Notes under the pieces: generated by a model | The model's input: only the letters and a program-made list of their open reading frames with translations | Databases searched by the model: none | What the model was told of the DNA's origin: nothing | Program-made: the position numbers and the translations under genes | IMG/VR virus record: IMGVR_UViG_3300027865_000007 | Reading direction: 5' to 3' (one strand) | DNA from: a virus | DNA: 64,000 bases | Shown: positions 14,168 to 50,889 of the stretch, in pieces | Layout of the letters: every line of letters begins with the position of its first letter | Numbering within the stretch: position 1 is the stretch's first letter

Positions 14168-15277
14168 ATGAGTCATCCAACGCTGTACCACAGTGGCAAG
14201 AAAGATAAGATGTATTCCTGGAGGGTCTGGACTGAGGAGGACATGATTTGCACTGAGTTCGGTACCCTCGACGGCGAGAAACAAATCGCCAAGAAGAAGG
14301 CCCTCGGGAAGAACATTGGCAAGAAGAACGAAACCTCGCCAGAGGAGCAGGCAGAGCTTGAAGCCAAGTCGATGTGGCAGAACAAGCTAGACAGGAAGTA
14401 CCGGCTGACGGAGGAAGAGGCCAGCAAACCCCTACCCCTCCCTATGCTAGCTTACGAGTTTAGTAAGAAGGCAGACAAGGTCACCTACCCCTGCGATCTT
14501 CAACCCAAACTAGACGGAGTCAGATGTCTTGCCCGCTGGGAAAACGGAAAGGTGGAACTCCTCAGCAGGAGCGGCAAGCCTTACACCGCCCCAACACACA
14601 TCATCGAAGAGCTAGAGTGCATCCTCCCAACCAACACCATCCTAGATGGAGAGCTCTACGCTCACGGCGAGTCTCTCCAGACCATCAACAGCTGGGTAAA
14701 GAAGAAGAGAGACGAGACCACCCGCATCCTCTTCTGGGCCTACGATGTTATCGACGAGACCCAGCCAAAGGAGCCGTGGGCCTGCAGATGGCATCTTCTC
14801 GTCGGCCTGTTCAACCGTCCAGCATGGAAGACTGCCAGATACGTCGTGCAGACGCCCTGCTACGAGGCCCAAGACGAAGAAGAGATTCACGGTAGCCACG
14901 ACGAATTCCTCGAGCAAGGATTTGAGGGGGCCATCATCCGACTCCCCGATGGGGTCTATCGGTTCGGCTACCGCTCAAACTCCCTCCTGAAAGTCAAGGC
15001 CTTTGACGACGACGAGTTCAAGGTAGTCGGCTACTACGGCGGAAAGACTGAGAAATCAAAGGACTGTGTCACCTTCGAGTGTGCTGTAGGAGATGACAAG
15101 TTCGGAGTCGTACCCAAGGGAACGCTCGGACATAAGAGGCAACTTTACAAGGATGCAGAATCCTATATTGGCAAGTGGCTAAAAGTCCAATACTTCGGGT
15201 TCTCGGATAACGGTACCCCGCTCCTCCCGATAGGTCTTTGCTTTCGCTTAGAGGAAGATATGGATCTAAAGTCGTAA
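14168..15277 (+). CDS. ATP-dependent DNA ligase
   Basis: Motif I KLDGVR, motif IV-like EGAIIR, motif V LLKVK. Confidence 0.8.
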   Translation: MSHPTLYHSGKKDKMYSWRVWTEEDMICTEFGTLDGEKQIAKKKALGKNIGKKNETSPEEQAELEAKSMWQNKLDRKYRLTEEEASKPLPLPMLAYEFSKKADKVTYPCDLQPKLDGVRCLARWENGKVELLSRSGKPYTAPTHIIEELECILPTNTILDGELYAHGESLQTINSWVKKKRDETTRILFWAYDVIDETQPKEPWACRWHLLVGLFNRPAWKTARYVVQTPCYEAQDEEEIHGSHDEFLEQGFEGAIIRLPDGVYRFGYRSNSLLKVKAFDDDEFKVVGYYGGKTEKSKDCVTFECAVGDDKFGVVPKGTLGHKRQLYKDAESYIGKWLKVQYFGFSDNGTPLLPIGLCFRLEEDMDLKS

Positions 15278-17165: not shown

Positions 17166-17523
17166 CACAGTCAATGGAAGAAGGATTGCCGTTACTGCCT
17201 CTTTCTGTGAGGACGATCTCGCGGCTCTAGAAGAGTGTGTAGAGGAGTGTACCAAGGCCGCCGCGGCCTTGTTCAGACCGGACAAACTTGATGGAGACCC
17301 TGAAGGTCCAAGCGTCGACGTCACAGGTATCCTTGAGGGAGACCACGACATAGACGACATCGAGAAGCAGTTTAGGATCATCGCGCAGGCGGTTCCAAGC
17401 CTAGAGGCAAAGGCCCACATCGGAGCCCAATGGGAAAGCAAATGGTGCGTTGCCACGCTGTCCCTCCAAGATGGAATTGTTACCGTTGGTTCCCCTGAGA
17501 CAGACGAGGTCTACCCCAACTAG
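17155..17523 (+). CDS. hypothetical acidic protein
   Basis: ATG at 17155; Asp/Glu-rich. Confidence 0.4.
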   Translation: MARSTVNGRRIAVTASFCEDDLAALEECVEECTKAAAALFRPDKLDGDPEGPSVDVTGILEGDHDIDDIEKQFRIIAQAVPSLEAKAHIGAQWESKWCVATLSLQDGIVTVGSPETDEVYPN

Positions 17524-17533
17524 GAGAAGGACA

Positions 17534-26086: not shown

Positions 26087-29000
26087 ATGGCAGCCTTTCA
26101 TCCCCCCGAGTCCACGACTGATCTTCTACATAATAGGTACTACCAGAAGGGCGAAGACTGGGAAGGGCTGTGCAGGCGAGTTGCTCACACGGCAGCCCAG
26201 GTAGAGCCCAAGAGTAAGAGAGCCGAGTGGGAGGGCAAGTTCTTCGAACTTCTCCACTCCGCCGAGGGCCTTCCTAATACCCCAGCCCTAGTAAACCTAG
26301 GTGCCAACCACGCTGGGTCAGTAGCAGCCTGCTTCTCTTTCAGACCAGACGACCATATGACCTCAATTATGGAGGTCTCTCGACTGGCTGCTATGACTCT
26401 AAAGTTTGGTGGCGGGGCAGGCTTCGAGTTATCCCTCCTTAGGCCTGCCGGATCTGCAGTTCAGTCCACCCACAAGCAGGCAATGGGCCCTGTTGGCGTG
26501 ATGAAGTTCTACAATTCTGTAGGCGATATGATCACCCAGGCAGGCATCCGTAAGGCTGCCCTCATAGCTATCCTTCGGATCGACCACCCCGATGTAATTC
26601 ACTTTATGCAGGCCAAGTCTGAGGACAAGCAGCTAGCCAACTTCAACATCTCTGTATCCATCACCGATGGGTTTATGAAGAAGCTCTCTAGCACCCCTGA
26701 GAGGCCCCACATCGCTCGTTTCGGTGGCAAGCAGTACTATATCCTTACCGATGGTACCGCCGTTCTGAAGGCCGAAAGAGGCTCAAAAGAGGTCCTCTCA
26801 GTAGAAGATACTTGGAACCTCCTCTGTGAGGGCGGCTCGCTGAATGGGGATCCAGGCATCTACTTTGTAGACCACGCCAACAAGAACAATCCTCTGCTGG
26901 AGACTCCTGGAGACACAGAGAGCCCCTACTATCTCCATGGGACAAACCCATGTGTAACAGGAGACACTAGACTCCATACCCACCTAGGCCTTGTAAAGGC
27001 CAAAGACCTCTGTCAAAGAGGAGATACTCTAGAAGTTACGGTCGACAAGAGGGCCCTCGACCTGCAGGAGAAGGGTACAGAGAAACGACCGGCACTGCCG
27101 ATGGTTATGACAACCAAGGCCGCCCATATATTTCGGCTTAGGACAAAGGAAGGATACAACATCAAGGCCTCCCCCTGGCACGAATTTTACACTACGCGAG
27201 GAAAGTTGAGACTCGAGGAGGTCGAAGTAGGAGACAAGATTCTCATTCAGTCCGGCGAAGGCATATTCGGCCCAGCAGGAACGAAAGAACTCGGGACTAT
27301 CATCGGCCTGATAGCCGGTGACGGCTGTATATCAGATCGAGGGAAAGGCAAGCACGCTGCCGAGATAGACCTCTGGGGCAAGGACAAACCCCTAGCCGAA
27401 AGGCTAGTCAGGTGGGTAAATAACCTTATCGCAGGCTTGTCCCACAATGGTAGAGAGTACAAAGTTAGTGCCGTAAGGCCTAAAGGGACAGACAAAGTGG
27501 TCATCAGATCGACCATCCTGGCACGAGTACTTGCAGATTACTGGTTCACAAAAGAGACAAAGTACGACGTCCCAGAGGTCATATGGTCGGGTACTAGACC
27601 ATGTGTAGTAGGCTACCTACGAGGACTGTTCAGTGCAGACGGCACCGTAAACGCCAGTAGCGGAGGAAATAGCTGTTCCATTCGCCTATCCTCCAGTAAA
27701 CCCCTACTACTAGAGCAGGTCCAGATCCTGCTATCCAACTTCGGAATCTTCTCGAGAATCTACAAGCGCCGCGAAGCTGGAGAGCGTATGCTACCTGACG
27801 GTAAGGGCGGCAAGAAGGTTTACCAGTGCAACGCAGATTACGAGCTGATCATCGACGGAGAATCACGCGGGATCTTTATGGAAAAGGTTGGCTTCCTGCA
27901 GGACTATAAGAATAGCCGATACACGGAGTGGGCCAAAGGCAAGCTACTCCGCAAAACGCAGCAATTCACGGCAGAAGTGTCATCCTTCGAGTACATGGGA
28001 ACCGAGGAAGTCTACGATACCACACAGGAAGACCACAACACTGTGATCTTCAACGGCTTCGTCACAGGACAATGTGGAGAACTGCCTTTAGAGGCTAACG
28101 GGGCCTGCGTCCTCGGATGTGTAGACCTAGCAAAGTTTGTAGTAGAAGAAGAGTTAGACACCGAGCGTCTAGCCACTATATTCAGAACGATGTGTCGGCT
28201 GCTCGAGAATATGACAGACATATCCGAGTGGCCAGACGAGGTAATAAAAGAGACTGTCCTGCGGACAAGAAGAATTGGCGTTGGAGTTATGGGCTTTGCC
28301 TCTATGCTAGATAAGCTTGGCATTATGTATGGCTCTGACGAGTGCATTAAGATGATTGATATCGTCGGCTCCCTAAGAGAGACCGCTTGTGCCGAGGAGT
28401 CCAAGCAGCTAGCTAAGGAGAGAGGTAGCTATCCAGCCTCCATAAATGGCGAGAAGCATAGGAATGTTGCGAGGACTGTAATCGCCCCGACTGGGACACG
28501 GGCAATGATTGCCAATACCTCCTGGGGCATTGAACCTCATCTTTACTGGGCTTTCGAAGAGAGAAGGAATGACCAGAAGAGATTCAGATTCCTTCCGGCC
28601 GTTCACGAATACCTAGACGAAGATACTCTAGCAGACCTCAAAGAGAAGGCGGACGGAAACCTAGAACATCTGAACAATATGATTCAGAGCCAGCTACCAC
28701 TCCATATGACCACGGCCAGGGATCTTTCCCCCGACGCACACCTAAGAGTTGTAGCTCAATGGCAGAGGTACACAGACTCTGCCGTATCAAAGTGCCTATC
28801 CGAAGGCACTTTAGTTCACACGAACAAAGGTATTCTTCCGATAGAGCAGCTCGGGGGTGCTTTCACCCCAGACAAAGTCGCCAAACCTCTCGAAGGACTG
28901 AAGGTTATAGACAAAGACGGGATTCCAAGGAAGGTAACTGCCCATTATTGCGCAGGAAAACTTCCCACAAGACGAATCAGGCTTTCGAACGGATCCACTC

Positions 29001-30619
29001 TCTCAGGCGCTCGCGAGACACATCGGGTTCTCACCCCAAGCGGATGGAAGAGACTCAAAGACCTTCGAGTAGGAGAGGCTGTTTTTGTTAGAGACCGCCA
29101 CCTGTCCCTCGGTAGTCTTGGAAAGAAACCCATCGACTCCGTAGAGATAAGCAGAAACTGCAAGCCAATCACAATCCCGGAAGAGATGTCCGTAGATCTA
29201 GCCTGTTGGCTGGGGATGGTCGCCGCAGACGGATACGTAATAACCAAAACGGGGAGCTCCTGGGTCCAGCTTACGGAAAAGAACCCCAAGGTAGGGAAGA
29301 GATTTGATACCCTGACACAGAAGATTTTTGGGAGGACCCCAAAAGTCAAAGTGGATGGTAGAAACGGAGTGATTTTGCATACAATACACTCCACCCCCTT
29401 AGCCCACTGGACAGAAGCGTTGATTGGAGACTCAGCAAGGACAAAGCACGCCCCGAAGCAAATTCTACACGGGTCTAAGGAAGAGAAGATTTCCTTCGCG
29501 GAGGGATTAACCCTTGATGGATATGTCCTCCCGCAGGGGTCAGGAGGCCTCGTCATCTATGGGGGAATTTCCAAAAGGCTAAGAGACGAAACCGCCGAGA
29601 TCTTGAGAAGTCTCGGTCTCCCGCAGGTAAGAAAGCGCGAAAAGAAAGTTCACGGGAGGAACTATAACTGCTACATAGTAGAGGTTAGGGAAGATCTTCA
29701 AGAGCTGATAGATCCAATCGAAAAGCACAAGAGCGTTTCCCCAAGTAGGAAAAGGTCTCTTGTGGGAATCGATCCGTCTGCGGTGGAGAACCTAAAGATT
29801 TCGTGCCTAGACCCTCGCTATAGAGGGTGGCTGTCTCTGCGAGCTAGGAAGAGAGATTACTGCTGGTCGACCACTGCGAGATCTCTAGAGCTCCAAGTTC
29901 TTGGTCGTGTGGAAAAGGTTACCCTTATTGAAGACCCAAGAGAGACCCAAATGTTCGACATCCAGGTCGAAGGAAATCATAGCTACCTTATCGACGGAAT
30001 CGTCTCCCACAACACAATCGTAGCTCCCTTCGAAGTTCTAACTCCTGAGAAGGTTAGCGAGATCTACCGCTTTGCTTGGGAGAGCAAACTCAAGGGTCTT
30101 ACGGTCTACCCAGAAGGCTCCCGTCAGGGAGAACCAATGAGTATTGGCAGGAAGAAGAAGACCCACGCTGGCCGACCGAAGAAGCTCCCAAGCGAGACTT
30201 ACGAAGAAGAGGTAATGATTGGCAGAGACCTTGTACAGGCCTTCTGCTTCGTAGGATTGAATCCCAAGAATCTAAAGGAGCCGGTCGAGGTTTTCCTAAA
30301 GCATCCCCACGTTGAGGATCCAACAGCCATTCAGTTCATCGATGTTCTCACCAGAATGATCTCCCTTGCTCTCAGACATAGACGGTGTCCGTCCTGCGGA
30401 GAAGAGGCCGTTCCGCTAGGTGAGATAATCAAACAACTCAGGAAGACCGATGGTCAGTCCCTCTATTCTGTCCCGGGCATCTTCGTAAAAGCGTTAGGCG
30501 AGTACCTAGGGCCAGGAGAATCAGTAGGGAAATGCCCCGACCACAAGTGCAAGGGCGAGCTAACTATAATCGAAGGCTGCCAGGTCTGTATGTCCTGTAA
30601 GTGGCGAGCCTGCGGCTAA
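26087..30619 (+). CDS. nrdJ: class II (adenosylcobalamin-dependent) ribonucleotide reductase interrupted by two inteins
   Basis: N-terminal LPNTPALVNLG...SVAACFSF...GGGAGFELSLLRP matches NrdJ. The NPCGE motif is split by insertion 1; the SK|T(INLP)-type motif by insertion 2. Extein is about 729 aa after removing both. Confidence 0.9.
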   Translation: MAAFHPPESTTDLLHNRYYQKGEDWEGLCRRVAHTAAQVEPKSKRAEWEGKFFELLHSAEGLPNTPALVNLGANHAGSVAACFSFRPDDHMTSIMEVSRLAAMTLKFGGGAGFELSLLRPAGSAVQSTHKQAMGPVGVMKFYNSVGDMITQAGIRKAALIAILRIDHPDVIHFMQAKSEDKQLANFNISVSITDGFMKKLSSTPERPHIARFGGKQYYILTDGTAVLKAERGSKEVLSVEDTWNLLCEGGSLNGDPGIYFVDHANKNNPLLETPGDTESPYYLHGTNPCVTGDTRLHTHLGLVKAKDLCQRGDTLEVTVDKRALDLQEKGTEKRPALPMVMTTKAAHIFRLRTKEGYNIKASPWHEFYTTRGKLRLEEVEVGDKILIQSGEGIFGPAGTKELGTIIGLIAGDGCISDRGKGKHAAEIDLWGKDKPLAERLVRWVNNLIAGLSHNGREYKVSAVRPKGTDKVVIRSTILARVLADYWFTKETKYDVPEVIWSGTRPCVVGYLRGLFSADGTVNASSGGNSCSIRLSSSKPLLLEQVQILLSNFGIFSRIYKRREAGERMLPDGKGGKKVYQCNADYELIIDGESRGIFMEKVGFLQDYKNSRYTEWAKGKLLRKTQQFTAEVSSFEYMGTEEVYDTTQEDHNTVIFNGFVTGQCGELPLEANGACVLGCVDLAKFVVEEELDTERLATIFRTMCRLLENMTDISEWPDEVIKETVLRTRRIGVGVMGFASMLDKLGIMYGSDECIKMIDIVGSLRETACAEESKQLAKERGSYPASINGEKHRNVARTVIAPTGTRAMIANTSWGIEPHLYWAFEERRNDQKRFRFLPAVHEYLDEDTLADLKEKADGNLEHLNNMIQSQLPLHMTTARDLSPDAHLRVVAQWQRYTDSAVSKCLSEGTLVHTNKGILPIEQLGGAFTPDKVAKPLEGLKVIDKDGIPRKVTAHYCAGKLPTRRIRLSNGSTLSGARETHRVLTPSGWKRLKDLRVGEAVFVRDRHLSLGSLGKKPIDSVEISRNCKPITIPEEMSVDLACWLGMVAADGYVITKTGSSWVQLTEKNPKVGKRFDTLTQKIFGRTPKVKVDGRNGVILHTIHSTPLAHWTEALIGDSARTKHAPKQILHGSKEEKISFAEGLTLDGYVLPQGSGGLVIYGGISKRLRDETAEILRSLGLPQVRKREKKVHGRNYNCYIVEVREDLQELIDPIEKHKSVSPSRKRSLVGIDPSAVENLKISCLDPRYRGWLSLRARKRDYCWSTTARSLELQVLGRVEKVTLIEDPRETQMFDIQVEGNHSYLIDGIVSHNTIVAPFEVLTPEKVSEIYRFAWESKLKGLTVYPEGSRQGEPMSIGRKKKTHAGRPKKLPSETYEEEVMIGRDLVQAFCFVGLNPKNLKEPVEVFLKHPHVEDPTAIQFIDVLTRMISLALRHRRCPSCGEEAVPLGEIIKQLRKTDGQSLYSVPGIFVKALGEYLGPGESVGKCPDHKCKGELTIIEGCQVCMSCKWRACG
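26951..28072 (+). mobile_element. intein 1 in nrdJ, inserted within the NP|CGE active-site motif, with LAGLIDADG-like homing endonuclease region
   Basis: Starts CVTGDTRLHT right after HGTNP. Contains IIGLIAGDGCISD (LAGLIDADG-like). Extein resumes CGELPL. C-terminal intein residues would be ...NGFVTGQ (Gln-terminal); alternative end at DHN (28039) cannot be excluded. Confidence 0.65.
28793..30013 (+). mobile_element. intein 2 in nrdJ with LAGLIDADG-like endonuclease region
   Basis: Begins CLSEGTLVHT after DSAVSK, ends ...YLIDGIVSHN followed by Thr (+1). Contains WLGMVAADGYVI motif. Flanks reconstitute SAVSK|TIVAP. Confidence 0.8.
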
Positions 30620-31097: not shown

Positions 31098-32042
31098 ATG
31101 CCATCAATTGTTGTAGTAGGCGACCTCCTAATCGACCGGTACCTCTACTGTACCCCTAAAGGCCTCTCTCCAGAGGCCCCCATCATATCTATGGATGTGG
31201 ATGAGATTGTTAGCAAGCCGGGCGGGGCAGCTAACGTAATGATGAACCTCCTCGCGCTAAGCAGGCTCCATACAGAGAGAGGCGAGAAGAATGAGGTAGA
31301 GATCAAGTACGTTGGGCCCGTACCAGAGATGCTCTGGACTATCCTCCGCCAGATAAAGGTAGAGGAGCACTTCAACTACTATGCCGGGAGGGCATACCAA
31401 GCCACCGTGAAGAGCCGGATTATCTTCAGAGAACCGTACCAACAGATCATAAGGTTCGACGAGGACAGGAAGACTCCAGTCTCGAAGATAGACGAGGACA
31501 CAATCGTCGCGATGCTCAAGGATAAGAGCTACGACATTGGCCTTGTGTCAGACTACAACCACGGTTCCATCTCCCAGGAAGTATACGATGCGGTCAGGAG
31601 GTCTTGTACTAGAGTTTTAGTTGACCCCAAAGGTGGCAACCCGCGCAAATACCAGGACGCAACCCTCATCACGCCAAATACGGAGGAACTGGGGACTCTG
31701 ACCGGACACCGGCCCTGGTCTCCGGGGAAGGACGAGGCAAGAAAGCTACAGGCCTGGTGTGGTGGCGCAGACGTCATCCACAAGGTGGGAGAGCATGGGT
31801 GCATCCACTATACTGAGAAGAGCGACCCCGTAGTCTATCTGGCATATAGAAATGGGCACGCAGTCATAGATCCGACAGGTGCAGGAGATACCTTCATTGC
31901 TATGCTAGCCTGGTGCTTCAGTCTCGACATCCCAACAGACAAAGCTATCAAAGCGGCAACTAGACTGGCGGGTATAAGCGTAACCCAACCAGGATGTTTC
32001 GTTCCCGAAGACAAAGACTATACAGATGCCCTCTATCCTTGA
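31098..32042 (+). CDS. pfkB-family sugar kinase, D-glycero-beta-D-manno-heptose-7-phosphate kinase-like (HldE/RfaE domain I type)
   Basis: VVVGDLLIDRYLYC...LSPEAP N-terminus and C-terminal DPTGAGDTF motif. Confidence 0.7.
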   Translation: MPSIVVVGDLLIDRYLYCTPKGLSPEAPIISMDVDEIVSKPGGAANVMMNLLALSRLHTERGEKNEVEIKYVGPVPEMLWTILRQIKVEEHFNYYAGRAYQATVKSRIIFREPYQQIIRFDEDRKTPVSKIDEDTIVAMLKDKSYDIGLVSDYNHGSISQEVYDAVRRSCTRVLVDPKGGNPRKYQDATLITPNTEELGTLTGHRPWSPGKDEARKLQAWCGGADVIHKVGEHGCIHYTEKSDPVVYLAYRNGHAVIDPTGAGDTFIAMLAWCFSLDIPTDKAIKAATRLAGISVTQPGCFVPEDKDYTDALYP

Positions 32043-32430
32043 GAAGACTGTAGCCGTTACTGGGTGCTACCAAATATTGCACCGAGGCCACGTTATTCTT
32101 CTGGAGAAGTGCAGGAAGCTAGGCAAGCTGACGGTTCTGCTCAACAGCGACGAGAGTGTGCTGAGGCTCAAGAACTATCTCGCAGAATCCTGGGAGACAA
32201 GACGCGATAACCTACTAGCTACAGGGCTAGTAGATAGGGTTCTAAGCATCGAAGATGATCCAACCATAATGATTTGGTTCCTCAAGCCAGACATTCTAGT
32301 AGCAGGAGACGACCACGACTATAGTGCCATTATGAGCAGGGGAGGGAAGTACGCAGGTGAAGTTATAACCTTCCCATACACTGAGGGGATCTGCTCGACA
32401 GATCTCTACAAGAAAAGTAAGAAGGAATGA
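32026..32430 (+). CDS. cytidylyltransferase-fold heptose-1-phosphate adenylyltransferase-like (HldE/RfaE domain II type)
   Basis: VAVTGCYQILHRGH (HxGH NTase motif) ... LNSDESVLRLK ... KPDILVAGDD. Confidence 0.7.
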   Translation: MPSILEKTVAVTGCYQILHRGHVILLEKCRKLGKLTVLLNSDESVLRLKNYLAESWETRRDNLLATGLVDRVLSIEDDPTIMIWFLKPDILVAGDDHDYSAIMSRGGKYAGEVITFPYTEGICSTDLYKKSKKE

Positions 32431-35761: not shown

Positions 35762-35941
35762 ATGGACAAATGGACAGAGATTTTCGAAGTCATCGAGAAG
35801 GCGCCGCTAGACAGTCGAATCAGAAGAAGAACCCTACTCTTCCTCAAGCTTGCCAAGGAAAAGTACTCACAGGAGATCTGCGACGAGATCATCAGTAGCA
35901 TAAAGAAGGAACTAGAGGAGATAAGAAAGGGTCTCAACTAA
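35762..35941 (+). CDS. small hypothetical protein (59 aa)
   Basis: ATG 3 nt after UDG stop; TAATG overlap with dnaE piece 1. Confidence 0.35.
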   Translation: MDKWTEIFEVIEKAPLDSRIRRRTLLFLKLAKEKYSQEICDEIISSIKKELEEIRKGLN

Positions 35942-36849
35942 TGGCTGAATTTGTACACCTTCATCTTCACTCAGATAGATCGCAACTTGACTCTATAATC
36001 CAGATCCCCAAGCTGATACCCCTCTGTAGAGAACAAGGAATGAGGGCTGTAGCCATCACCGATCACGGCGTGGTATCGGCTGCTATCAGGCTGTACGAGG
36101 AGGCGCGGAAGGAGAAGGATAAAGATGACAACCCTGTGGCGCCCATCAAGCCCATCATAGGCTGTGAGCTTTACCTAGCTCCTACAGATGACCATACGCT
36201 CCGCGAGCCACTGGAAGGTCATCCACCGCAACAGTGCTATCACCTTACGGCCCTAGCAAAGAACGCGGCGGGAGTCTCACAGCTATATCAACTCTCCTCG
36301 CTGGGTTATCTAGAGGGCTACTACTACAAGCCTAGAGTCTCTATCAAGCAGATCGAAGAGATCGGGAAAGACCTCATACTCCTAGGGGCTTGTGCCAAAG
36401 GCCCCGTCAGCTGGAGTCTTCGGAACGACAACCGAGCCCAAGCAGGGGAGTACCTGGCTCGTCTCCGCGACTCATTCAAGGACAGGTTCTACCTAGAGCT
36501 TATGTACCACGGGCTCCGCTTCCAGGAAGTACTAAACGAAGAGCTTCTAGAGATGTCCAGACTCTACGAGGTACCCTGGATCCCAACGAACGATGCTCAC
36601 TTCCTATCTAGGGAAGATCACTACGAGCACTCTCTAATGATGTGTCTCCAGCTGAAGAAGACTCTTCCAGAACTCGACGAAGCTAAGATGCGCTACCCAA
36701 CTGAGTGCTATGTGAAGAGTCCGGAGGAGATGGAGTCATACTGGGGTGAAGACGCCTGTAGAAGGACGCTTGAGATAGCAGAGCAGGTGGACATAACCCT
36801 AGAGCTAGACAAACAACGCTTCCCTCTTTACTCTGAGCCCGATATCTAG
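35941..36849 (+). CDS. dnaE: DNA polymerase III alpha (DnaE) fragment 1: PHP domain only
   Basis: FVHLHLHSDRSQLDS ... AVAITDHG ... IIGCELY ... HYHLTALAKN; ends at the position where piece 2 resumes in DnaE alignment. Confidence 0.85.
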   Translation: MAEFVHLHLHSDRSQLDSIIQIPKLIPLCREQGMRAVAITDHGVVSAAIRLYEEARKEKDKDDNPVAPIKPIIGCELYLAPTDDHTLREPLEGHPPQQCYHLTALAKNAAGVSQLYQLSSLGYLEGYYYKPRVSIKQIEEIGKDLILLGACAKGPVSWSLRNDNRAQAGEYLARLRDSFKDRFYLELMYHGLRFQEVLNEELLEMSRLYEVPWIPTNDAHFLSREDHYEHSLMMCLQLKKTLPELDEAKMRYPTECYVKSPEEMESYWGEDACRRTLEIAEQVDITLELDKQRFPLYSEPDI

Positions 36850-36868: not shown

Positions 36869-37753
36869 ATGAAGGATAGGACTTGTCAGATCGAGTGGTG
36901 CTCTTCCCCTATAGATAGGAAAGGGCTCTGCACTAGACACTACACCCAGCAATGGAGACACGGCCGGATCATTCCTAAAGGGAAGGAACGCCCCACAAGA
37001 AGGTTCGACCCAAGCGAAAAGGTCGAGATCAAATGTCCAGTATGTGAAGAGACATACAAGATCGGGCTGCCTTACTATCTCCACAGAGTACGAAACGGTA
37101 AGTATAGCCAATGCCACAAATGCTCACACAAGCTCCGCGTGGCAGACCTTCCATTAAATAAGAAGGTCGAGAAAGGTGTCATCGAGAAGCTTCCGGACGG
37201 CTCGACCGTTCACTGGGGCGACTTCACATACCGCAAAGGGGGAAGACTATTCAAAGTCCTATGCCGAGAGGGATGTCAAGGAAGAAAAGAGCGTAGGTGC
37301 CAGCCAACCTCACTTCTGAAAGGAAAGGGTCTGTGCATATCCTGCGCCATGCTCCGCCACCATAATGGAGGAAAGTTCCCAGAAGTTGGGGATAAGAGGC
37401 ACACCAGCACAGGATACACAGACATATACCTAGGAGCCAACTCACCTGAATGTCTCCACTCCAAGGCAGGATGGGTACCGGAACATCGGGCTGTATGGCT
37501 GGCTCATTTCCCAGAGGATAAGGAGAAGCTAGCCGACGGGTTTCACGTACACCATAAAGACGGCAACCAGACGAATAATCTAATAGAGAACTTGGCCTTG
37601 CTCTCCAGAAGCGACCACACTAAGTATACCTCCCGGCTCTCAAGCAGGCTTATGACGCTTCTAAATAACGGGGAGATTAAGATAGATAGTAAGCAGGCGG
37701 GACTAGAAGACATTCTATCCATCAACGACTGCTTCCCAGAATACTCGGAGTAA
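36869..37753 (+). CDS. HNH endonuclease (free-standing homing-endonuclease-like)
   Basis: Cys-rich N-terminus (CQIEWC...GLCTRHY) and C-terminal HVHHKDGNQTNNLIENLALLSRSDHTK HNH motif. Confidence 0.8.
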   Translation: MKDRTCQIEWCSSPIDRKGLCTRHYTQQWRHGRIIPKGKERPTRRFDPSEKVEIKCPVCEETYKIGLPYYLHRVRNGKYSQCHKCSHKLRVADLPLNKKVEKGVIEKLPDGSTVHWGDFTYRKGGRLFKVLCREGCQGRKERRCQPTSLLKGKGLCISCAMLRHHNGGKFPEVGDKRHTSTGYTDIYLGANSPECLHSKAGWVPEHRAVWLAHFPEDKEKLADGFHVHHKDGNQTNNLIENLALLSRSDHTKYTSRLSSRLMTLLNNGEIKIDSKQAGLEDILSINDCFPEYSE

Positions 37754-46131: not shown

Positions 46132-47031
46132 ATGATAGTTATGGCAAAGAAGAAGCCAGCCAAGTCTAAGAAGACCGAGAAGCCTAAGATCAGACGGTTC
46201 ACCCTTGTCGAAGGTGGCAAGAAGCGATTCTGGCAGATCTCTCTCTTCAACGCAGAGGATCCCGTTCGCGTCGTGAGAAATTGGGGCAGGATCGGAGCCA
46301 AAGGTCGAGAGAAGGTTCAGACCTTCAACGCGGCGGGATCTGCCAAGCAACTCTTCGACGATATGATCGCAGAGAAGGTTGGCCGGGGCTACAAGGAGAC
46401 TAAGGTCAAAGGCCTAGTCGAGACATCCCCAGGGGTCTGGGTAATCGCAGAGGAAGAAGAGCCAAAGGAAGCTTTCTTCGAGAAGCCCGAGAAGAAGGTT
46501 GCGAAGCCACCTAAGCTACCAAAGAACTGGCCTGAGGTGAAGAAAAATCTCCTGCCCGAGGAGATTGTCCTCTACGAGAAGCACAACGATACTAGGACTC
46601 GTCAGAGGCGGGCGGCCCTGTGCAAGAAGCATACTCCGCTGCTTAGGCCCACGGCAGTACATGGGAAGGAGACCAAAGCACTCCGAGAAACAGTGTGGGT
46701 TCTTCTCAGGTGTGCATACCTCAGGTTCCTGCTGGAGCTTTCCCTCTACAATCCTGACACCACGGATGCAGGAAGGTCGGCCCTAACAGCTCTCGCGGCG
46801 AAGCTAGAGAAACTTCCCTCGAGCCAAAAGAAGTATGTGAACGAGAAGCTTGCTCCCATCACTTCCGACAAGGCTAAGGGTGGGTTCAGCATCAAGAGTG
46901 CCGAGGAAGGTATCAATGCTTTCTCTCTCGAAATGATCAGAGAGATCAATGAGAAAGAGAAGATCGGGTACGGAGGAATCAACCGAAAGAGAGCGAAGAG
47001 GCTCGCCGGTCGATTGAAGAGAGCAACGTAA
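46132..47031 (+). CDS. WGR-domain protein with C-terminal extension
   Basis: KRFWQISLFNAEDPVRVVRNWGRIGAKGREKVQTF...GYKE matches the WGR domain. Confidence 0.6.
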   Translation: MIVMAKKKPAKSKKTEKPKIRRFTLVEGGKKRFWQISLFNAEDPVRVVRNWGRIGAKGREKVQTFNAAGSAKQLFDDMIAEKVGRGYKETKVKGLVETSPGVWVIAEEEEPKEAFFEKPEKKVAKPPKLPKNWPEVKKNLLPEEIVLYEKHNDTRTRQRRAALCKKHTPLLRPTAVHGKETKALRETVWVLLRCAYLRFLLELSLYNPDTTDAGRSALTALAAKLEKLPSSQKKYVNEKLAPITSDKAKGGFSIKSAEEGINAFSLEMIREINEKEKIGYGGINRKRAKRLAGRLKRAT

Positions 47032-47864: not shown

Positions 47865-48120
47865 TGCCTACCCGTGGGAAGTTCGAGTACTTCTAACTGA
47901 GGAAGCTCTCAAGAGAGATGCAGCAGTAATAGACATCCTCGACGAGCTTGTATCTACAAGTCTCGCCTACCATTGTCCATACTGTGGGAAGAGAAAACCG
48001 TTCGAGACCTGTCGGTCTTGCAAATATCTAGAGAGCTGTATTGAAGGCGGCGTGCTGGGATGCCCCGGCTGCCTGAATTGCGAAGGTATAAGTGGAAAAC
48101 TCCGAGCTGTTGAGGACTAA
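47851..48120 (+). CDS. small Cys-rich zinc-binding protein
   Basis: CPYC ... CRSC ... CPGCLNC. Confidence 0.35.
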   Translation: MKESDAYPWEVRVLLTEEALKRDAAVIDILDELVSTSLAYHCPYCGKRKPFETCRSCKYLESCIEGGVLGCPGCLNCEGISGKLRAVED

Positions 48121-49726
48121 AGCCCTCGCAGGACTAGAAGAGAGAGGGCTCTCAGGTAAGCAAGAGTATGTAGACCGCCTAGAGTATGAACTCGAAACCA
48201 TTGAGAAGCTAGGATTCACGACCTACTTCCTTGTGATGTGCGACATCGTGAGGTTTGCCAGAGAGAACGACATCCTCTATGGCCCCGGTCGCGGGAGCGG
48301 AGCTGGAAGTCTACTGAACTACTGCCTAAAGATCACGCTCATCGACCCACTAAAGTACGGGCTCCACTTCGAGAGGTTCCTGAACCCCAATAGGGTATCT
48401 CCACCAGACATTGACTGGGACACCGCCGATCGAGGTAGAATTATTGAGTATCTCGAGGGAAAGTACGGTAAGGACAGAGTCGCTCGCGTGGGTACAGTCA
48501 ACTTCCTGAGAACGAAGAGCGCTATCAGAGACATCGGTAGAGTCCTTGAGAAAGAGTTCAAGTTCATAGACAACCTAGCTGAGCTTGTACCTCCGCCCGT
48601 CGCCGGCCTCTGGGATAGTTTTGACCGGGAGGCTGAGGTCGAGCCAGAACTCCTCTCGTCTAGGTACCAAGAGATCATAGACCCCACTAGGAAGCTCTGG
48701 GGGGTACTCAGGAGCTATGGTACACACGCAGGAGGGGTTGCTATAGCCCCCATACCAATCAGCGAGATGGCGCCCCTCTACAAGGATAAGGACGGTAATC
48801 CAGTCTCTCAGTTCGACTGGAGAGACCTCGAGAAGGCAGGGCTACTCAAGTTCGATATCCTAGGGCTAAACACCTTGGAGGTAATCCAGCTGACCCTGAA
48901 ATATCTGAAGGTCGACGCGATAGACCTTGATCTAGAGAGTCTCGAGGACGGAGACCCAGACGCATACAAGATGATTTGCAGCGGCGATCTTGATGGGGTA
49001 TTCCAGCTCGGCGGGAGTGAGTCAATCAAGCAGCTCACAGTCTCTATGTCTCCCAAATGCATTGAGGATCTCGCCCTTGTGACGAGTCTCTACCGCCCAG
49101 GCCCTCTATCTAGTGGAATGGTCGATGGCGCCGTGAGGGTCAAGCAAGGGAAGGCTACTCCTAAGTACATCGACCCCATACTTGCCCCAATCTTGGACGT
49201 GACGCACGGCGTTCCTGTCTTCCAGGAACAGATTATGAATATCTGCACTGACCTATGTGGGTATACCCTTCCCGAAGCAGACAAGATGCGGAAGATTGTA
49301 GGTAAGAAGCTCAAGAAAGAGATGCCCAAACAGAAGAAGATGTTCGTGGAAGGAGCCATTGCAAATGGGGTACCTCGGAGCGGAGCCGAAAAACTTTTCG
49401 GACAGATAGAGGATTACGCTCAGTACCTGTTCAACAAGACACACGCAGTCGCTTACTCCGTAATAACGTACTGGACGGCATACCTAAAGGCCCATCATCC
49501 AATAGCTTTCTACGCTAGCCTCCTCGCTTGCGAGAAACATCCAGACAAGAGAACGCAGTACGCGAGCACGATCAAAACGGCGGGGATAGACATTCTTCCA
49601 CCCGATGTAAATCTATCGGGCTTCTATCACCAGCCAGAGGGAAACGCAATCAGGTTTGGCCTCAGCCACATCAAAGGGATGGCCACGGCTACCGCTCAAG
49701 AGATCGTAGACCTTAGAAATGACTAG
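48092..49726 (+). CDS. dnaE: DNA polymerase III alpha (DnaE) fragment 2: palm/thumb/fingers core
   Basis: GFTTYFLVMCDIV ... GPGRGSGAGSLLNYCL ... FERFLNP ... PDIDWD and later blocks; starts exactly where piece 1 ends in DnaE alignment. Confidence 0.9.
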   Translation: MENSELLRTKALAGLEERGLSGKQEYVDRLEYELETIEKLGFTTYFLVMCDIVRFARENDILYGPGRGSGAGSLLNYCLKITLIDPLKYGLHFERFLNPNRVSPPDIDWDTADRGRIIEYLEGKYGKDRVARVGTVNFLRTKSAIRDIGRVLEKEFKFIDNLAELVPPPVAGLWDSFDREAEVEPELLSSRYQEIIDPTRKLWGVLRSYGTHAGGVAIAPIPISEMAPLYKDKDGNPVSQFDWRDLEKAGLLKFDILGLNTLEVIQLTLKYLKVDAIDLDLESLEDGDPDAYKMICSGDLDGVFQLGGSESIKQLTVSMSPKCIEDLALVTSLYRPGPLSSGMVDGAVRVKQGKATPKYIDPILAPILDVTHGVPVFQEQIMNICTDLCGYTLPEADKMRKIVGKKLKKEMPKQKKMFVEGAIANGVPRSGAEKLFGQIEDYAQYLFNKTHAVAYSVITYWTAYLKAHHPIAFYASLLACEKHPDKRTQYASTIKTAGIDILPPDVNLSGFYHQPEGNAIRFGLSHIKGMATATAQEIVDLRND

Positions 49727-49803: not shown

Positions 49804-50889
49804 ATGACAATTTCCTCGATCAGGGACATCGTCGAAAGAACTTCTGCTAATGCCAAAGCCCTTGAGTGCTTAGGGAAGGCGGGAGCCTTCAACAACCTAG
49901 AGGACGGGCTAAACGAGCTAGAGGCAGCCGAGTACGGTCGGGAGATGGTAGTCTACCTCCGCGATCTAGGGAAGTTCAAGGAGCGTTCTGCTAAGCACGC
50001 TGAGTCTCTCCATCAGAAGGAAGAGAAGTTCCGAGATAAGGTAGAGGCCCGCCGCGTTCGAATGGAAGAGAAGGATGCCAAGTACCAGAAGAAGCTAACC
50101 GAGTACGAGGCCCGGCTAGCCGAGGTACAGGTAAAGAATGCAGCGAGAGGCGATAAGAAACCCCTAAAGGAACCCGTAAAACCACTACCACCGAAGCCTC
50201 TGAAAGGCGTTGAGTATCCAAAGCCTTCGAAGGTTCCAACAGAACCACCAGAACCACCGAGACCTAGGATTGCCCTCTCACAGCGGGAGAGAGTCCGCCT
50301 CCAGAGAGAGATGCTCTACATCTATCTCACAGGCCATCCCCTCGACGAGGCCCTGCCCGAGAATGGACTCACTCCAATTGGAGATCTAGCCCTGCTAGTT
50401 TCTCCCGACGGCGAAGAGGTTCCTAAGAAAAAGAGAAAGAAGATAGTCGTAACAATTCGTGGCGTGCTGCTATCACATAAGGTCACGAATACTCGAAGCA
50501 AAAAGCTTATGGCCAGACTCCGTCTCGAGGACAAGACAGGTAGCATAGAGGTAGTAGTCTTCCCTGCCCTCTATGACTCCCTAAAGGGCCTCCTAACCGA
50601 CGGTGAAATATATAAAGTGACAGGAGAGGTCGACACGACAAAGAATGTTGGTGACGACGGAGAAGAGCGCTCACATACCCAAGTAAAGGGTAAGAAAGTT
50701 AGAGCTGTCAGGATTGGCAGCGATAAGGAGTGGGATATCAACTACCCGCTCCTGCGGGGAGGACTTAGGATTCTCCCAGGACCAGCGCAGAAATCGAAAG
50801 GACTTGCTGCGAGTACCATAATGCAGCAGGCCCGAAAGACTATCGAGGCAAGGATTGAAGCACTTCGACAGAGTTCAACGCTACTGTGA
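49804..50889 (+). CDS. dnaE: DNA polymerase III alpha (DnaE) fragment 3: C-terminal HhH/OB-fold region
   Basis: KALECLGKAGAFNNL (HhH region) and OB-fold VVTIRGVLLSHKV...LRLEDKTGSIEVVVFPALYDSL. Separated from piece 2 by a TAG stop and a 78-nt spacer in a different frame, with its own RBS. Confidence 0.8.
   Translation: MTISSIRDIVERTSANAKALECLGKAGAFNNLEDGLNELEAAEYGREMVVYLRDLGKFKERSAKHAESLHQKEEKFRDKVEARRVRMEEKDAKYQKKLTEYEARLAEVQVKNAARGDKKPLKEPVKPLPPKPLKGVEYPKPSKVPTEPPEPPRPRIALSQRERVRLQREMLYIYLTGHPLDEALPENGLTPIGDLALLVSPDGEEVPKKKRKKIVVTIRGVLLSHKVTNTRSKKLMARLRLEDKTGSIEVVVFPALYDSLKGLLTDGEIYKVTGEVDTTKNVGDDGEERSHTQVKGKKVRAVRIGSDKEWDINYPLLRGGLRILPGPAQKSKGLAASTIMQQARKTIEARIEALRQSSTLL

Follow-up and report, generated by a model that had tools for sequence, protein, structure and literature searches.

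A class II ribonucleotide reductase gene interrupted by two inteins

The stretch of DNA analyzed here (the window, 64,000 nucleotides of the IMG/VR virus record IMGVR_UViG_3300027865_000007) contains an nrdJ-like gene in one intact open reading frame (ORF) of 1510 codons, located at 26087..30619 with its stop codon at 30617-30619. This single precursor ORF, which like all features of the gene lies on the plus strand, encodes a 1510-aa ribonucleotide reductase (RNR) protein into which two inteins are inserted. The N-extein (26087..26950, aa 1-288) ends in ...HGTNP, the first half of the NPCGE active-site motif, and is followed by intein 1 (26951..28072, aa 289-662, 374 aa). The middle extein (28073..28792, aa 663-902) starts with the thiyl-radical Cys of NPCGE, which is the Cys+1 of intein 1, and ends in ...DSAVSK, where intein 2 begins (28793..30013, aa 903-1309, 407 aa). 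The C-extein (30014..30616, aa 1310-1510) opens with TIVAP... and includes a CPSCGEE motif (30386-30406) and a Cys-rich C-terminal tail (30533-30616), a type of tail that is also present in the phage NrdJ proteins of three IMG/VR loci (L002, L004 and L082).

Both insertions are in frame, and excising 26951-28072 and 28793-30013 yields a 729-aa protein whose best relative in the PDB is NrdJ of Thermotoga maritima (1xje, E 1e-63). The alignment of this spliced product with 1xje has zero gaps at both junctions. At junction 1, TNPCGELPL pairs with TNPCGEIGL, and in the longer stretch TNPCGELPLEANGAC pairs with TNPCGEIGLSDYEAC; at junction 2, QRYTDSAVSKTIVAP pairs with QRYVDNNISKTINMP, where 1xje reads ISKTINMP. 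The NPCGE finger-loop motif with its thiyl-radical Cys is intact only once intein 1 has been removed, and the corresponding intein-less nrdJ target DNA at junction 1 is CATGGGACAAACCCA/TGTGGAGAACTGCCT (a slash marks a junction here and below). The precursor matches the Pfam families Ribonuc_red_lgC (E 3e-73), Ribonuc_red_lgN, LAGLIDADG_3 and Intein_splicing, and the spliced extein scores 440.3 bits against the NCBIfam model TIGR02504 (NrdJ_Z), above the curated cut-off of 399.95 bits. The ORF, the junctions and the NrdJ matches are far beyond chance. Together with the interpretation of the locus as a whole, to which we give high confidence, the gene is predicted to encode a phage adenosylcobalamin-type (class II, NrdJ) RNR. 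A preliminary description of the window had proposed a class II RNR carrying two LAGLIDADG-type inteins, the first of them inside NPCGE, with the NrdJ motifs restored upon excision; the domain matches, the paired endonuclease motifs described below and the gap-free alignment bear out each of these proposals.

No close relative of this nrdJ gene or of intein 1 was found in the phage record collection or in IMG/VR by megablast, tblastn or single-protein scans. Megablast with the gene found zero matches among 50,697 phage records, and tblastn of the extein gave less than 60% identity to each record matched, with 24-33% in the 25 best. When the N-extein and intein 1 were each used as a single-protein query, IMG/VR yielded nothing; the IMG/VR relatives described below came solely from profile-derived patterns.

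Organization of the two inteins

Intein 1 is inserted between Pro288 and the thiyl-radical Cys of NPCGE, with the junctions HGTNP/CVTGDTRL and DHNTVIFNGFVTGQ/CGELPL (on the C-terminal side, ...NGFVTGQ/CGELPL), and has the features of a class-1, glutamine-type intein with a nested LAGLIDADG endonuclease. Its nucleophiles are Cys289 (Cys1) and Cys663 (Cys+1). Block A (CVTGDTRLHT, 26951..26980) begins with Cys1, the predicted first nucleophile, and the pattern CVT.DTRL is conserved in the family. Block B (GYNIKASPWHEFYT, 27152..27193) has Ser at B:7 and retains the His at B:10. The two LAGLIDADG motifs, LGTIIGLIAGDGCIS (27290..27334, ..IAGDG..) and VVGYLRGLFSADGTV (27605..27649, ..FSADG.., with a D-G-T-V that is invariant or nearly so in the family), each have a catalytic acidic residue and are conserved in relatives. 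Block F (EEVYDTTQEDHNTVIF, 28004..28051) holds a DHN tripeptide at 28031-28039, and block G (NGFVTGQ, 28052..28072) ends in a penultimate Gly and a terminal Gln (CAA, 28070-28072). The His-Asn usual at the C terminus is absent and is replaced by Gly-Gln, a documented glutamine-type variant that leaves membership in the intein class standing (PMC4031507). At family positions conserved to at least 90%, intein 1 keeps every residue save one, T74S in block B (S-P-W-H), where 23 of 25 family members have Thr; with its His present, this Thr-to-Ser replacement appears to be a conservative change.

Pfam places both parts of an endonuclease-bearing intein within intein 1, with LAGLIDADG_3 at 97 bits and Intein_splicing at 35.5 bits, just below the cut-off of 35.8. 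An AlphaFold2 model (33 homologs used) reached a mean predicted local distance difference test (pLDDT) score of 92.4, and this confident model depicts a Hint domain together with a LAGLIDADG endonuclease. In Foldseek searches the top PDB matches of the model were TliVMA (7qsu), PI-PfuI (1dq3), PhoVMA, PI-TkoII and PI-SceI; free LAGLIDADG enzymes and mini-inteins ranked next. TliVMA, PI-PfuI, PI-TkoII (2cw7) and PI-SceI (1vde) have the same two-domain architecture as the model (E 1e-18 to 1e-10), but the solved LAGLIDADG inteins are only 10-18% identical to intein 1 in sequence and reside in other host proteins, save PI-PfuI, whose host is an RNR.

Intein 2 lies between the Lys and Thr of SKT, with the junctions DSAVSK/CLSEGT and IDGIVSHN/TIVAP, and thus has the Cys1...His-Asn/Thr+1 ends that had been read for it at the outset. 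Its LAGLIDADG motifs (..VAADG.. and ..LTLDG.., at 29198-29239 and 29486-29527) have the catalytic acidic residue and are conserved in relatives, and its block B (28991-29035) reads ..ARETH.., with the usual Thr lacking and the His present. LAGLIDADG_3 matches at 28.1 bits (cut-off 22.5) and Intein_splicing at 35.6 bits (cut-off 35.8), and residues 121-304, the homing-endonuclease region, match the TliVMA intein in the PDB. Intein 2 is nearly an orphan. A search of 5.8 billion proteins gave one relative (P0071, 35% identical over half its length), and the sole related IMG/VR locus (L082) is 35% identical over the full length; both relatives are located at SK/T of an NrdJ and end in SHN/T.

Another phage NrdJ with two inteins is encoded by ORF 2056-6960 of the IMG/VR loci L004/L005 (IMG/VR_UViG_3300025616_000416 and 3300004805_000006). 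One of its inteins is at NP/C and ends in Leu-Gln; the other is at IAPTG/T, a site that differs from the SK/T of intein 2, and ends in THN/T.

Terminal glutamine in the intein 1 family

Searching the same 5.8 billion proteins with intein 1 gave 70 relatives, mostly about 55% identical and nearly all in NrdJ of Gammaproteobacteria or other bacteria, at the site TNP/C.../CGEQPLPPYG. A profile search enlarged this set to 90, with junctions projected from a hidden Markov model. The C-terminal Cys junction was readable in 66 homologs, with Gly-Gln/Cys in 50 and Gly-Asn/Cys in 16 (an earlier pass with regular expressions had given Gln and Asn ends in a ratio of 35:8), and Cys1 was found in 57 of the 58 homologs whose N-terminal junction could be read. 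The family conserves the penultimate Gly and the pattern NG.VTG[QN]/C, whereas it does not keep the His of the block-F DHN, this position being H, G, R, K, M, C or N. The end in Gly-Gln without a penultimate His, as the preliminary description had it, is thus both present in the gene itself and the majority state of its clade.

More distant relatives extend the pattern. Allelic inteins of phage NrdJ in IMG/VR that are 28-42% identical to intein 1 end in Arg-Gln (L002/L003), Leu-Gln (L004/L005) or Ser-Gln (L009), and remoter phage NrdJ alleles (L008, L010 and L013) end in His-Asn. A second host context is a protein of about 250 aa interrupted at GLHPH/C.../CRC (P0068 and P0076-P0095; L011, L012, L014 and L016 in IMG/VR), whose inteins are 25-30% identical to intein 1 and have a Gly-Gln or Gly-Asn end before Cys. 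This host protein has no Pfam match and resembles phage head-morphogenesis and minor head proteins only weakly (PHROG 4728 and 115).

Among the RNR hosts examined, Gln is encoded by CAA, whereas two of the head-protein hosts use CAG. Because Gln codons are kept while adjacent codons vary synonymously, the terminal Gln is a selected, family-wide feature; it is neither a reading error nor a mutation of decay. A rough neighbor-joining tree requires at least 11 switches between Gln and Asn, with one Asn subclade inside the RNR clade and many switches in the head-protein host context; the tree rests on 185 residues of fragmentary sequences, and the count is correspondingly rough. This number of switches leads us to view Gln and Asn as behaving like functional equivalents. 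Exchanging Gln (CAA/CAG) and Asn (AAT/AAC) takes two nucleotide changes by way of His or Lys, and a last residue other than Gln or Asn, including these intermediates, was seen in zero clade members despite the many apparent switches.

Nearly all of the database homologs are fragmentary, being 681 aa or shorter and starting or stopping inside the intein. Split or frameshifted genes were suspected as the source of these fragments, and at the sole locus inspected (L001) the fragment proved to be an assembly artifact, owing to a run of N within the intein (3933-3982). At the same locus a spurious minus-strand gene had been called over the N-extein, and the database 'protein' starts inside the intein. 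These cases suggest that intein-containing nrdJ genes are often misassembled or misannotated.

Transfer of intein 1 between divergent nrdJ genes

Intein 1 shares 54-66% identity with the inteins of bacterial NrdJ proteins, whereas for the extein downstream of it the identity to those proteins is only 24-27%, and in the neighbor-joining tree intein 1 is nested within the bacterial Gln clade. These comparisons indicate horizontal transfer, in which intein 1 has moved between very divergent nrdJ alleles. Apparently intact endonuclease motifs had earlier been taken to suggest recent mobility for both inteins. The motifs do look intact and intein 1 has clearly moved, but recency is not supported: the composition of the inteins matches that of the phage. 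No compositional sign of recent arrival was found in either intein when GC content, GC at third codon positions (GC3) and codon usage were compared with the rest of the gene and with other window genes: GC is 0.515 and 0.504, and GC3 and codon-usage divergence fall within the range of the gene remainder and the window genes.

Proposed maturation of the precursor and alternative explanations

From the sequence features described above, we consider it very probable that the 1510-aa precursor matures by class-1 splicing of both inteins, with Gln662 cyclizing in intein 1. In this scheme, Cys1 of intein 1 would form a thioester, the N-extein would pass to Cys+1, itself the catalytic Cys of the RNR, and Gln662 at the C terminus would cyclize to an aminoglutarimide and free the intein, in place of the usual conversion of Asn to succinimide; an S-to-N shift would then re-form NPCGE. 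The cyclizing residue of intein 1 would accordingly be a Gln preceded by Gly rather than His. Intein 2 would splice canonically between the Lys and Thr of SKT, using Cys1, His-Asn and Thr+1, and both inteins would be copied into empty nrdJ alleles by their LAGLIDADG homing-endonuclease domains. Since intein 1 splits NPCGE and its Cys+1 is the thiyl-radical Cys, the precursor should be inactive before splicing, as judged from the insertion position.

Several points weigh against this interpretation. Splicing itself, cyclization of Gln to a glutarimide and endonuclease activity are all steps that we infer. The family lacks the penultimate His and does not conserve the block-F His, and reviews allow routes other than cyclization for non-Asn inteins (PMC4031507). 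In intein 2, block B (A-R-E-T-H) is atypical, having Arg where the Mtu RecA intein has Thr and L082 has Ser, and an AlphaFold2 run with one homolog gave a pLDDT of 34 and an unusable model.

Intein 1 might splice without its terminal Gln acting as the cleaving residue, C-terminal cleavage instead proceeding by hydrolysis or by attack aided by other residues. Other mechanisms are indeed allowed for inteins ending in Gln, Asp or Glu (PMC4031507, PMC2807308), and the two histidines that would ordinarily assist are both unconserved in this family. However, the last position is Gln or Asn in all 66 clade members with a Cys+1 junction, which is the expectation if a cyclizable side-chain amide is required; His, Lys, Glu, Asp and Ala are unseen there. 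On balance this explanation is improbable. Somewhat less probable still is that intein 1 is a decayed, non-splicing insertion, disabled by mutation to Gln, in a phage nrdJ that is a pseudogene. The missing terminal Asn and penultimate His, and the Ser in place of Thr in block B, are what decay might leave behind. Yet the frame is intact over 1510 codons, the catalytic motifs of the extein are intact, the conserved residues of the family are retained apart from T74S, and Gln is the majority state of a clade that includes bacterial nrdJ genes; inteins of the Gln type have, moreover, been proven to splice (PMC4031507).

The placement of the C-terminal boundary was also weighed, since His-Asn is the canonical intein end and occurs only 11 residues upstream. 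If intein 1 ended at this DHN, the following residues (TVIFNGFVTGQ) would be an unusual extein, and the junction would read NP-TVIFNGFVTGQCGE. (The preliminary description, which raised this end as the alternative that would overturn its own, put the DHN at 28037-28039; that is the Asn codon alone, and the tripeptide occupies 28031-28039.) Alignment with the solved DnaE intein 7qil, in which block F '...VYDIGVESDHNFALSDGFIA' with its 'DHNF' pairs with '...VYDTTQEDHNTVIFNGFVT' of intein 1, identifies the DHN as block F and the residues after it as block G. The DHN His varies in the family, whereas the Gly and Gln or Asn before Cys do not, and Gly-Gln/Cys-Gly-Glu is conserved in dozens of alleles. 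An end at DHN would furthermore make Thr the +1 residue and break NPCGE, whereas removal through Gln gives the gap-free match to 1xje. We regard a boundary at the DHN as exceedingly unlikely, and retain the boundary after Gln662.

A broader hypothesis is that the Gly-Gln end marks a large, uncharacterized clade of inteins that occupies both the thiyl-Cys site of RNR, in bacteria and phages, and the HPH/CRC site of the head-morphogenesis-like phage protein, and that uses a distinct catalysis of C-terminal cleavage. We put this forward as a doubtful, though not negligible, proposition. If it were true, splicing could possibly be slow or conditional and could gate the supply of deoxynucleotides to the phage, for example through redox control of Cys1 and Cys+1.

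Comparison with known inteins

The glutamine end had been described initially as an uncommon splicing chemistry. Uncommon it is, but not new, since Gln-type inteins have already been studied experimentally (PMC4031507, PMC549080, PMC8175363). For the RNR intein of Chilo iridescent virus (CIV, IIV-6), splicing is more efficient with the native Gln than with Asn (PMC4031507, PMC8175363, PMC8229266, PMC549080). Like intein 1, it is an endonuclease-bearing intein that natively ends in Gln, in a viral RNR catalytic (large) subunit (PMC4031507, PMC549080, PMC1635734); unlike intein 1, it resides in the class I RNR of a eukaryotic virus. No iridovirus proteins were among the homolog matches of intein 1 in the protein and profile searches, and a literature search did not find the insertion site and terminal motif of the CIV intein.

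Inteins in DNA polymerase II (PolII) of Pyrococcus and Methanoculleus, the Pab and Pho PolII inteins among them, splice slowly with Gln (PMC4031507, PMC8175363, PMC8229266). For those of Pyrococcus abyssi, P. horikoshii and Methanoculleus, cyclization of Gln to aminoglutarimide has been characterized and structures have been solved (PMC8175363, PMC8229266). These differ from intein 1 in being mini-inteins without an endonuclease, located in PolII, with a His-Gln end and a block-F His beside the Gln, in contrast to the Gly-Gln end and unconserved block-F His of the intein 1 family.

The position directly N-terminal to the thiyl-radical Cys is the commonest site for contiguous RNR inteins (PMC2677866), and intein 1 has this insertion point in common with RNR inteins such as the Pyrococcus-type NrdJ intein (NCBIfam PRK08332). 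The PRK08332 profile matches residues 57-372 of intein 1 (E 5.6e-31), the match stopping two residues before the Gly-Gln end. Multiple inteins per RNR gene, phage RNR inteins and glutamine-type inteins are all already documented. What is added here is modest: Gly-Gln as a majority state, repeated exchange of Gln and Asn, and two unrelated host proteins.

Genomic setting

The window is phage-like, with nearly all predicted ORFs on the plus strand, a GC content of 51.8%, and genes for an RNA ligase, a DNA ligase, a UvsX-like recombinase, a primase and a DnaE-type polymerase. The polymerase, of the DnaE/PolIII-alpha type, is present as a 'gene in pieces' (35941-36849, 36869-37753, 48092-49726 and 49804-50889), in which three separate ORFs encode a PHP domain, a core with fingers and helix-hairpin-helix, and a C-terminal piece with an oligonucleotide-binding (OB) fold. 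An HNH endonuclease gene directly follows the PHP piece; between polymerase pieces 1 and 2 lie unrelated genes spanning about 11 kb. The ends of the three pieces showed no intein halves.

Directly downstream of nrdJ, at 31098-32430, are adjacent ORFs for a PfkB-family sugar kinase and a cytidylyltransferase-like protein, a pair that we presume resembles a split HldE-type sugar-nucleotide pathway. The window also encodes a nucleic-acid repair set (2028-3404, 14168-15277, 17450-18682 and 46132-47031) made up of an RNA ligase, an ATP-dependent DNA ligase, an RlaP-type nucleotidyltransferase and a WGR-domain protein; the RlaP-type nucleotidyltransferase, of the pol-beta family, belongs to an RNA repair pathway. 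At 44-1933 lies a gene for a 629-aa protein with shoulder and repeat domains of the Major Vault Protein (Pfam MVP_shoulder, E 8.5e-23); such domains are unusual for a phage-like genome.

Implications

These findings do not overturn the current understanding of nrdJ inteins, and their consequences differ by field. For annotation, the locus should be called as one nrdJ gene with two inteins, and the Gln end of intein 1 should be left as it is rather than 'corrected' to the upstream His-Asn. For intein biochemistry, the many natural pairs of Gly-Gln and Gly-Asn inteins at one site make up a comparative set for Gln cyclization in the absence of the usual histidines. For phage biology, one intein is common to bacterial nrdJ genes and to very divergent phage nrdJ genes.

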